Shown here: piece by piece, positions 2,535 to 4,594 of the stretch
Position numbering within the stretch: position 1 is the stretch's first letter
Layout of the letters: each line of letters begins with the position of its first letter
NCBI RefSeq assembly: GCF_044324875.1
Contig: NZ_CP172185.1
DNA from: Escherichia coli
GTDB lineage: Bacteria > Pseudomonadota > Gammaproteobacteria > Enterobacterales > Enterobacteriaceae
Direction: 5' to 3' (one strand)
DNA length: 64,000 nt
Notes under the pieces: model-generated
What the model was told of the DNA's origin: nothing
The model's input: only the letters and a program-made list of their open reading frames with translations
Databases searched by the model: none
Translations under genes and position numbers: made by a program

Positions 2535-3116
2535 ATGAATTTTTTAGCTCACCTGCATCTAGCTCACTTGGCGGAAAGCTCGCTTTCTGGCAATTTACTG
2601 GCTGATTTCGTACGCGGAAATCCTGAAGAAAGTTTTCCGCTCGACGTCGTGGCTGGCATTCATATGCATCGGCGCATTGATGTACTAACCGACAATCTGC
2701 CGGAAGTCCGCGAAGCACGGGAATGGTTTCGTAGTGAAACGCGCCGCGTTGCGCCTATTACCCTGGATGTCATGTGGGATCACTTTCTTTCCCGCCACTG
2801 GTCGCAGCTGTCGCCGGACTTTCCGCTACAGGAATTTGTCTGTTATGCCCGCGAGCAAGTGATGACGATTTTGCCGGACTCACCGCCACGTTTTATCAAT
2901 CTGAACAATTACTTGTGGTCAGAGCAGTGGCTGGTGCGCTATCGCGATATGGATTTCATCCAGAACGTGTTAAACGGCATGGCAAGCCGTCGCCCACGTC
3001 TGGATGCCCTGCGTGACTCCTGGTACGATTTAAACGCACATTATGCCGCCCTCGAAACCCGCTTCTGGCAGTTTTATCCGCGGATGATGGCGCAGGCGTC
3101 ACGCAAGGCGCTCTGA
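2535..3116 (+). CDS. acpH: acyl carrier protein phosphodiesterase
   Basis: ORF track gives 2478..3116; internal ATG at 2535 ([16 protein letters not shown]...) gives the expected 193 aa; divergent from queA. Confidence 0.88.
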
Positions 3117-3136
3117 AACTTCAAGCTCCGGCGTCA

Positions 3137-4594
3137 CTATTTTTTAGCATTCGCATCCAGCGGAGCGGCATAACAACTGTAAGAAAAACATTCGCTGGAA
3201 TGATTGGCGATATCTTTAAAATTGCTTTCAGCAACCCCCTCGAACATGAGTACCGTTCTGGACAACTCTCCGTTGTCATTTATATGTGGAAAATCAAATT
3301 GTGTACTGAATCGCCATACATCTGTCTTTTCTGGCTCGCTGTTCACAGAGATACGTCGATGGAAGACTCCTCCTGAAAACGTGCGCCAGAACAATTGTTG
3401 ATCAAAATCTTGTAATATCGCAGACTTGGATGCTATTTGACGTAGTAAACCTGCATACCGTGGACTGCCATTACGAGCAACATTATGCAAACCCTGACTA
3501 AAAGCATCAAACAAACAATAGATGTGATCACTAGTGAAAAAAGGTCTTAATTTTTTTTGTTCTTCATCGCTGTAATCCAGGAGCATCTCATTGATTTCTT
3601 CCGGTGAGAATTTTAAGACAAAATTATCCTCAGGATTTGTTTCTTTCTTGTTTTTTTCACTATTTTTCTCCTCAATGGTCTTCGCATTTTGTTTCGCAAT
3701 TTTTTCCGCATTTTCTTCCTCAGTTTTTTTCGCAATTTTTTCCGCAATTTTTTCCCGAGTTTTTGATTTTAGACTAACACCATCGATGTCAACCGGTGTT
3801 GTTTTCAGATCTCTCTGCGCGTCTTTCAAATTTGTCTTATAGAGATCGGGCACTTTATCGGCAGATAAGTATCCGAATGAAGAAATCTGGTGTGTACGCA
3901 TGGGGGGCTGTTCACAAAGCATCGAGGCTATATCGTCTTTAAACTCTTTTACATTAAAGTTATCGGCATTAACCTTCCCTGTTATAAACCCCGCATCGGC
4001 AATTTTCTTCTCTAATTGTTTTGTACGTTTAGAATAATAAGCGTTGTTATCATAAAACTTTTCAAGAAGGGCCCACTCCTCAAGCTGCCTTATGTGATTT
4101 TTCAACTGTTGATGATCTATTTTATATTCATGTGTACTAGAATCATTTTGGTTGCAAGAGTTACAGATTTTTAAGCATAATTTCCCATCAGATTTATCAT
4201 CTATGGTATCAGTGAAAATATAGGACAATTCAATACTCTGCCCGTTCTTATCAGTCATCTCATATGACCATTGCCCCGTTCGTTTCGCATTCTTAATGAG
4301 TTCGATGGACTCTACAGGACAACCATGAAGAATGGGCAGAATTTTATCAGGATGCTTAATGAGTAAAATTATTATATTTACAATATTTGAAAAGAAATCT
4401 TTGCTATTTTTTATTTCATCGATTTTTTCCGCTGAAATGTTTACTAAGTTTTCATTTCCGGAAATGAAAAGCAATTTGCCATGGGGGCTTTTTTTAAATT
4501 GTTCTTCTGTTTTAGAAAAAACATCCTCTTTAAAAGGTGGCAACTCAGTACCAGTAATAAACGGTTTTAATAAATTCGAATTTGAAATTGTCAT
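3137..4594 (-). CDS. hypothetical 485-aa protein of unknown family; low-GC, probably horizontally acquired; Lys/Glu-rich repeat linker between N- and C-terminal regions
   Basis: Single long ORF with ATG at 4592-4594 preceded by GGAG; DNA about one-third G+C by eye against roughly half in flanks; no Walker A, HNH or other motif I can recognise. Confidence 0.7.
   Translation of the reverse strand: MTISNSNLLKPFITGTELPPFKEDVFSKTEEQFKKSPHGKLLFISGNENLVNISAEKIDEIKNSKDFFSNIVNIIILLIKHPDKILPILHGCPVESIELIKNAKRTGQWSYEMTDKNGQSIELSYIFTDTIDDKSDGKLCLKICNSCNQNDSSTHEYKIDHQQLKNHIRQLEEWALLEKFYDNNAYYSKRTKQLEKKIADAGFITGKVNADNFNVKEFKDDIASMLCEQPPMRTHQISSFGYLSADKVPDLYKTNLKDAQRDLKTTPVDIDGVSLKSKTREKIAEKIAKKTEEENAEKIAKQNAKTIEEKNSEKNKKETNPEDNFVLKFSPEEINEMLLDYSDEEQKKLRPFFTSDHIYCLFDAFSQGLHNVARNGSPRYAGLLRQIASKSAILQDFDQQLFWRTFSGGVFHRRISVNSEPEKTDVWRFSTQFDFPHINDNGELSRTVLMFEGVAESNFKDIANHSSECFSYSCYAAPLDANAKK

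Follow-up and report, generated by a model that had tools for sequence, protein, structure and literature searches.

A single-gene insert between convergent stop codons in Escherichia coli and the likely overlap of its 3′ transcript end with that of acpH

Where do two convergent transcripts end when their genes stop almost side by side, and how does such an arrangement come about at a locus that differs among strains? The question is raised by a window of 64,000 nucleotides of Escherichia coli DNA (the whole stretch analysed here, from contig NZ_CP172185.1), in which acpH faces an ORF on the opposite strand across a gap of 20 bp. An initial annotation had called this ORF novel and its insertion precise, had seen no hairpin with a T-tract in the gap, and had proposed that the two transcripts probably overlap at their 3′ ends.

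The acpH junction and its insert

The gene acpH, coding for ACP phosphodiesterase, lies on the plus strand (2535–3116) and encodes a full-length protein of 193 aa (Pfam ACP_PD, E 6e-59). Read directly, its 3′ end is GCG CTC TGA, with the TGA stop at 3114–3116. The ORF, of 485 codons and labelled ‘hypothetical protein’ in RefSeq, occupies 3137–4594 on the minus strand, where it ends in AAA AAA TAG, the stop appearing as CTA on the plus strand (3137–3139). The stop coordinates and the 20-bp convergent gap of the initial annotation are exact. The spacer between the stops (3117–3136) has the sequence AACTTCAAGCTCCGGCGTCA, of which the first three bases (AAC, 3117–3119) are also present in the empty site and the remainder, from about 3120, derives from the insert. 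We found the same 20-bp gap in all four further insert-bearing genomes that were fetched (five loci including the window). In 1127 complete genomes the junction is matched along 80% or more of its length, with 97–100% identity in five full-length rows among the matches listed, and AACTTCAAGCTCCGGCGTCA is absent from all 80 AcpH loci of other species that were scanned. The gene order is tgt (64–1191, minus), queA (1246–2316, minus), acpH (plus), the ORF (minus), malZ (4783–6599, minus, with its stop at 4783–4785), and proY (6755–8131, minus); malZ is the original convergent partner of acpH. In the window, a deletion of 1 bp near 5570 puts malZ out of frame.

The ORF is carried by a low-GC insert of ~1.65 kb (3111–4782), with 30–45% GC over most of its length against ~53% in the flanks, a composition that points to acquired DNA. 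By megablast, 1126 of 5426 complete E. coli genomes, O157:H7 among them, have the full 2400–5000 segment, so that the insert is carried by ~21% of these genomes and missing from ~79%. The comparison with the uninserted locus that the initial annotation had proposed was run on K-12-like 5FA and others (B95, CFT073, 2010C_3902, DCE7): in these empty sites the stops of acpH and malZ are 4 nt apart, in the sequence ...GCG TTA TAA AACG TTA GTT... In alignments, homology to the empty sites ends within 3111–3120 on the left and returns within 4767–4783 on the right, and the extra DNA therefore lies exactly between the two stops. The proposal that the insertion landed precisely in the 3′ junction is thereby borne out, the insert filling the 4-bp acpH–malZ stop spacer of insert-free genomes.

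The tail of acpH reads CTC TGA with the insert and TTA TAA without it, amounting to three changes in six bases, all silent, and the AcpH C-terminus ...RKAL is kept when the insert is present. The ends of the insert also carry an imperfect 9-bp direct repeat on the plus strand, with a left copy CTCTGAAAC at 3111–3119 and a right copy AAATAAAAC at 4767–4775. As opposed to these diverged copies, TTATAAAAC is present once in the empty site. The repeat may represent a decayed target duplication, donor-type flanks linked to the insert, or chance. A 13-nt direct repeat (3090–3102 and 3125–3137) was also considered as a target duplication and set aside, because the sequence past its second copy does not continue acpH.

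To establish the polarity of the change, GTDB species representatives with AcpH were scanned (80 loci). Four other Escherichia representatives (MOD1-EC7003, E1V33, E. albertii, and SCPM-O-B-8794) are without the ORF, show the 4-nt spacer, and share a TTA/TTG-TAA acpH tail. Further afield, the acpH and malZ stops overlap in Siccibacter and are 10 nt apart in Pseudenterobacter, while in Salmonella, Citrobacter, Pluralibacter, and others acpH and malZ are separated by an AhpC/TSA peroxiredoxin gene. The CTC TGA tail is also found in Citrobacter, Enterobacter, and Phytobacter. Since the empty 4-bp site occurs in other Escherichia and abutting stops occur in further genera, the insert is derived. 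The abutting convergent acpH/malZ arrangement is thus old in Escherichia, and the ORF came in later, within E. coli. The tight, terminator-less convergent layout is ancestral, was once even tighter, and was not made by the insertion.

We could not identify any transposase, integrase, or recombinase: the sole ORF of the insert has no match above noise in Pfam, NCBIfam, PADLOC, PHROGs, and PDB sequence searches. We saw no terminal inverted repeats at the insert, which has no match in phage records either. Its only two ‘plasmid’ matches are both 4.9-Mb records resembling mislabelled chromosomes. It occupies one place per genome and does not occur in multiple copies. An origin as a mobile element was considered and rejected, there being no phage or genuine plasmid match and no terminal inverted repeats, and a strong hairpin within the insert (4701–4749, see below) not being repeated.

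Concerning the ORF itself, its 1458 nt stand open in DNA of ~35% GC, which is not expected by chance, and it is open in five of the five alleles compared. A GGAG Shine-Dalgarno sequence lies 7 nt before its ATG (4594–4592). Within the coding region, a 12-bp tandem repeat (3651–3764) encodes a Lys/Glu-rich run of 4-aa units, and allele lengths range from 466 to 493 aa, mostly stepping by 4 aa. Most length variants are whole 12-bp units, so that the frame is kept. Alleles of the ORF also exist in Shigella dysenteriae. The dN/dS of the ORF is ~0.6 in most pairs (range 0.25–1.8), versus 0.03–0.1 for acpH. We found no relatives outside E. coli/Shigella among 1.84 billion cluster representatives, the matches being its own cluster and fragments. 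AlphaFold2, run on 16 alleles, reached a mean pLDDT of just 42.8, which does not suffice for a fold search. Judged by its coding features, the ORF is a genuine gene and an uncharacterised orphan. The adjective ‘novel’ needs qualification: the ORF is indeed an uncharacterised orphan, but it is already a RefSeq hypothetical protein in the same 1126 complete genomes (WP_000155946 and WP_001577844, O157:H7 included). Upstream of the ORF, no sigma-70-like promoter was found at the threshold of the consensus scan; by eye, a weak extended −10 candidate (TGgTATTCT) may be present between the 4701–4749 hairpin and the ORF.

Terminator search on the two strands

No conserved intrinsic terminator is present on either strand at the acpH/ORF junction. 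The two strands differ in how clearly this is so. On the minus strand, between 3136 and 2419, runs of four or more U are missing from the RNA past the ORF stop. This stretch includes all of acpH, and the first such run comes at 2418, past the far end of that gene. On this side the initial statement that there is no terminator holds fully.

On the plus strand, a consensus scan of 2300–5000 reported no terminator at the junction (3100–3160), and its four hits overall are within chance expectation (2.5 ± 1.4). Rfam has no match at the junction either, the sole match being an ERIC-like V_AS5 upstream of acpH. We found, however, an imperfect hairpin on the plus strand that covers the acpH stop and the entire spacer (3098–3137), with a folding energy of −12.5 kcal/mol in the window allele. 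It has 14 pairs in 40 nt, the acpH tail supplies one half of it and the spacer the other, and its stem is broken by four mismatches or bulges, several of them 1x1 mismatches and one adjoining the stem base. Two nucleotides past the stem, and three bases beyond the gap, begins a T6 run (3140–3145, plus strand), which is the complement of the two terminal AAA Lys codons of the ORF and, in the 200 nt that follow acpH, the sole run of at least four U. The initial observation that there is no hairpin with a T-tract is therefore right in that the junction holds no credible or conserved terminator, and incomplete in that it missed this weak hairpin and the T6 that follows it.

Compared with shuffled sequences, the 40-mer has a z of −2.1, but only −0.13 in a 76-nt context. 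A d'Aubenton-Carafa-type discriminant was applied to every hairpin of the window that has a T-tract; the junction hairpin with its T6 obtains −10.9 and ranks 65th of 247, whereas good terminators score +10 to +30. The structure is also altered among alleles. O157:H7 and D8 have G3125A and SC418 has G3103A in the acpH arm; neither substitution is compensated, and each brings the hairpin to about −7 kcal/mol (−6.8 to −7.1 over these alleles). The junction thus offers no G+C-rich stem with at least about 5 contiguous pairs and a loop of 3–8 nt, no stem that is kept or compensated among alleles (the substitutions in O157, D8, and SC418 being disruptive), and no combined hairpin and tail score at the level of a good terminator (−10.9). 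As to the U-tract, the plus strand has U6 after the hairpin and the minus strand has none. The latter follows from the absence of an A-tract upstream of the hairpin (upstream sequence GATGGCGCAGGC), as would be needed by a bidirectional terminator. Together, the 3098–3137 hairpin and T6 are not a convincing or maintained terminator; at best they are a weak, allele-specific one. That the hairpin is not maintained follows from the uncompensated substitutions among alleles.

The situation is different at the other end of the insert, which contains a strong stem-loop on the minus strand (4701–4749; −29 to −30.5 kcal/mol, z −6.4). It follows the malZ stop by 34 nt and precedes the ORF start by ~105 nt, and so separates two genes that are both on the minus strand. 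It is single-copy and confined to the 1126 insert-bearing genomes. Its U-tail is poor (discriminant −14.7), and it could pause or stabilise malZ transcripts. The strong hairpin of the insert thus adjoins malZ, and nothing comparable stands beside acpH.

Transcript overlap and competing explanations

Since the genes have no credible or conserved intrinsic terminator between them, overlapping 3′ ends are plausible. A precedent exists at the very same acpH end: in MG1655, malZ-acpH is one of 165 convergent excludons called by ExcludonFinder, each present in half or more of 58 RNA-seq samples, a call that rests on a coverage threshold and not on mapped 3′ ends (PMC12288877). Neither acpH nor malZ has an entry in the supplements of the K-12 Term-seq study of Adams 2021, and there are no entries for the genes of this junction in the Sakai (EHEC) RNA-seq/Ribo-seq supplements. 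An overlap of the acpH and ORF transcripts at their 3′ ends is likely, judging from the analysis of the junction.

The account that we favour, and hold as a whole to be probable, is that of a single-gene insert between convergent stops with overlapping, terminator-less 3′ ends. A low-GC insert of ~1.65 kb entered the 4-bp acpH/malZ stop spacer, with both flanking proteins staying full-length, and placed a strong stem-loop next to malZ but no terminator next to acpH. The ORF has therefore replaced malZ as the abutting convergent partner of acpH. Of this account, the geometry, the polarity of the insertion, and the missing terminator are established, whereas overlap of the transcripts and any effect on regulation are inferred. 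Transcripts of acpH would continue past its stop and cover the ORF 3′ end in antisense for some tens to hundreds of nucleotides. In the acpH read-through RNA, C exceeds G (C/G 1.2–2.5) and U is abundant, a composition that makes an action of Rho plausible. ORF RNA, when made, would run antisense into acpH until stopped by Rho, by polymerase collision, or by the ERIC hairpin. The C/G of this RNA is 0.7–1.3 across acpH and then 3.4 at the ERIC region upstream of acpH, so that ORF RNA, if made, could span all of acpH. At convergent pairs, RNA polymerases that meet head-on are among the causes of termination (Wang et al., bioRxiv 10.1101/2022.10.23.513370). Antisense interference, or a reliance of the ORF on read-through into acpH for its termination, had been suggested by the initial annotation; Rho-dependent termination and polymerase collision are candidates of equal standing. 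The two 3′ ends would then overlap in the manner of a convergent excludon, as those of the ancestral malZ-acpH pair are reported to do.

AT-rich acquired genes are commonly silenced by H-NS, and the ORF may therefore be rarely transcribed and the overlap possibly one-sided. Carried further, this leads to an explanation to which we give somewhat less than an even chance, namely that the arrangement has no functional consequence: the ORF would be silent by xenogeneic silencing, Rho would remove the acpH read-through like any pervasive antisense RNA, and the 20-bp spacing would be incidental. Such a reading fits the 30–45% GC over most of the insert, the lack of a promoter-like site upstream of the ORF in the scan, and the weak constraint on the ORF (dN/dS ~0.6 in most comparisons). 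It also agrees with the dispensability of the insert, which is missing from 79% of genomes, and with the poor conservation of the 3098–3137 hairpin. However, the spacer and junction are almost invariant across ~1127 genomes, the frame of the ORF stays open despite changes in repeat number, and the ancestral malZ-acpH pair overlaps in K-12 transcripts, all of which speaks against a locus without consequence.

We consider it unlikely that the 3098–3137 hairpin and T6 are a working weak terminator of acpH that arose by chance where the acpH tail met the end of the insert. In that case acpH transcripts would stop at ~3145–3150 and overlap the ORF by only ~10 nt. The z of −2.1 of the 40-nt hairpin in the window allele means that hairpin and T6 could end part of acpH transcription, and the −12.5 kcal/mol of this allele, a U6 placed 2 nt past the stem, and the fact that T6 is the only U-run near the acpH stop all lend this some weight. 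Set against these are the mismatched stem, the discriminant of −10.9 (65th of 247), the silence of the consensus scan at this position, and a z that falls to just −0.13 in longer context, as well as the drop to −6.8 and −7.1 kcal/mol, with no compensation, in O157/D8 (G3125A) and SC418 (G3103A).

A joint reading of several features of the locus, which we regard as decidedly improbable, is that the insert is a cassette from an unsampled enterobacterial relative that entered by homologous recombination in acpH/malZ and now rewires the acpH locus in two ways. Import by homologous recombination would account for the foreign-type CTC-TGA tail of acpH. The rewiring, for which we would claim equally little, would consist in the stem-loop insulating acpH from maltose-induced read-through of malZ, and in ORF antisense RNA crossing the entire acpH when the ORF is expressed. 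If this were true, levels of ACP phosphodiesterase would depend on the state of a strain-specific gene.

Finally, it is scarcely credible that the ancestor carried the insert and that the 4-bp empty site is the product of a precise deletion, for which the flanking imperfect 9-bp direct repeat could have served: this was rejected on outgroup evidence and is largely refuted, given that the four other Escherichia representatives are empty and further genera have abutting stops, and that the low-GC ORF has no homologue outside E. coli/Shigella among the 1.84 billion cluster representatives.

The junction among known convergent arrangements

The closest comparison for the favoured reading, an insert whose 3′ end overlaps that of acpH, is the convergent excludon (the concept of Lasa and Toledo-Arana), as called for malZ-acpH (PMC12288877). 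Both have the same acpH end, a convergent partner, a very short gap, and no terminator between the genes, a setting in which overlap of the transcripts would be expected. At 20 bp the gap is within the distance of a convergent excludon, the mean intergenic distance of E. coli excludons being 95 nt (PMC12288877). The junction differs from the malZ-acpH excludon in that the partner is an inserted orphan ORF and that the gap is 20 bp instead of 4 bp.

Ju and colleagues reportedly found bidirectional intrinsic terminators at convergent gene pairs. The acpH/ORF junction resembles such bidirectional terminators and programmed collisions (Ju et al. 2019; Wang et al.) in having a stem-loop-forming sequence between convergent ends, and, as in programmed-collision systems, a collision here could stop both polymerases. 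In contrast to bidirectional terminators, the stem-loop is weak, imperfect, and unconserved, with a U-tract on one side only and no upstream A-tract.

As for the insert, small strain-specific islets are known to sit in core intergenic sites of E. coli, such as the single-gene O-islands of O157:H7. The insert has much in common with these: it is of low GC, contains a single ORF, occurs in O157:H7 and not in K-12, and lies between conserved core genes without a mobility gene. It departs from them in lying exactly between stops that were 4 bp apart, in the synonymous rewriting of the last codon and stop of acpH, and in its ORF being a strict orphan.

Altogether, the junction is largely ordinary and represents the edge of a common E. 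coli insertion, because the insertion is widespread, the neighbours were already abutting, and the locus is catalogued as an overlapping convergent pair. Overlapping convergent pairs are common in E. coli, and the ORF is uncharacterised yet widely sequenced. The practical value of the finding is modest: it shows that a horizontally acquired gene can settle in a 4-bp gap between convergent core genes without harming either. It shows, too, that with such an insertion a terminator-less convergent layout is taken over from the older locus and not newly made. If the overlap is true, the locus would provide a natural presence/absence polymorphism (~21% of genomes with the insert, ~79% without) for studying the effect of a convergent partner on acpH expression. 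The same polymorphism would offer an entry to the study of an uncharacterised orphan protein that is restricted to E. coli and that O157:H7 possesses.

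Repeats flanking and within the acpH/orphan ORF pair

An ERIC-type intergenic repeat lies directly upstream of the acpH start, at 2407-2531 (+), and contains the ERIC1R and ERIC2 primer sequences. Its match to Rfam V_AS5 is sub-threshold (38.7 bits, E 3.8e-6), and it folds into a hairpin of ~130 nt that extends to the acpH ATG (-50.8 kcal/mol, z -7.2). The repeat is absent in K-12-like and O157 genomes, whose matches start at window position 2535.

At the other end of acpH (2535-3116, +), the junction with the convergent orphan ORF (3137-4594, -) is spanned by a direct repeat of 13 nt, with copies GCGCAGGCGTCAC and GCTCCGGCGTCAC that agree at 11/13 positions. 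The final acpH codons hold one copy (3090-3102), and the spacer contributed by the insert holds the second (3125-3137); the imperfect hairpin at the junction (3098-3137, +) is the product of both copies together.

The orphan ORF itself holds a 12-bp tandem repeat (3651-3764), which is translated into a stretch of 4-aa units rich in Lys and Glu. Alleles of the protein in databases range from 466 to 493 aa, and most of these lengths differ by multiples of four residues, as would be expected if the number of repeats varies; the divergent allele of D8, an insert-bearing E. coli, is 461 aa long.

Mosaic divergence around the insert, and a 1-bp deletion in malZ

Divergence near the insert follows a mosaic pattern when window positions 2535-4594 are compared with two other loci (L001 and L006). 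Between the window and the insert-bearing strain O157, dS is 0.22 in acpH but 0.045 in the orphan ORF; O157 and D8 have identical acpH genes and an orphan ORF dS of 0.126; their ORFs also differ in the repeat region, 24 residues shorter in one of the two. Such a pattern suggests that recombination has had breakpoints near the insert.

Relative to the closely related strain GMF065, a 1-bp deletion within a C-run near 5570 breaks malZ (4783-6599) into two ORFs, at 4783-5616 and 5424-6599, reflecting either a true pseudogene or a homopolymer sequencing error. Identity to GMF065 is only 96.5% in malZ, against 99.6% over all of 2400-5000, the segment that includes the insert.

The acpH-malZ boundary in other genera

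In Leclercia sp. UBA7405, acpH and malZ are separated by ~38 nt (about 2866-2903 of its locus), and this spacer contains a perfect GC-rich palindrome, GGCCCGCCCGGGCGGGCC. Unlike the Escherichia arrangement, it has the appearance of a true bidirectional hairpin. In Salmonella enterica subsp. arizonae, Pluralibacter and Citrobacter, a gene coding for an AhpC/TSA peroxiredoxin lies between acpH and malZ (L019, 4792-5391; L034, 4665-5354; L044, 4660-5349). Judged by this gene content, the acpH-malZ boundary is a variable spot across Enterobacteriaceae.
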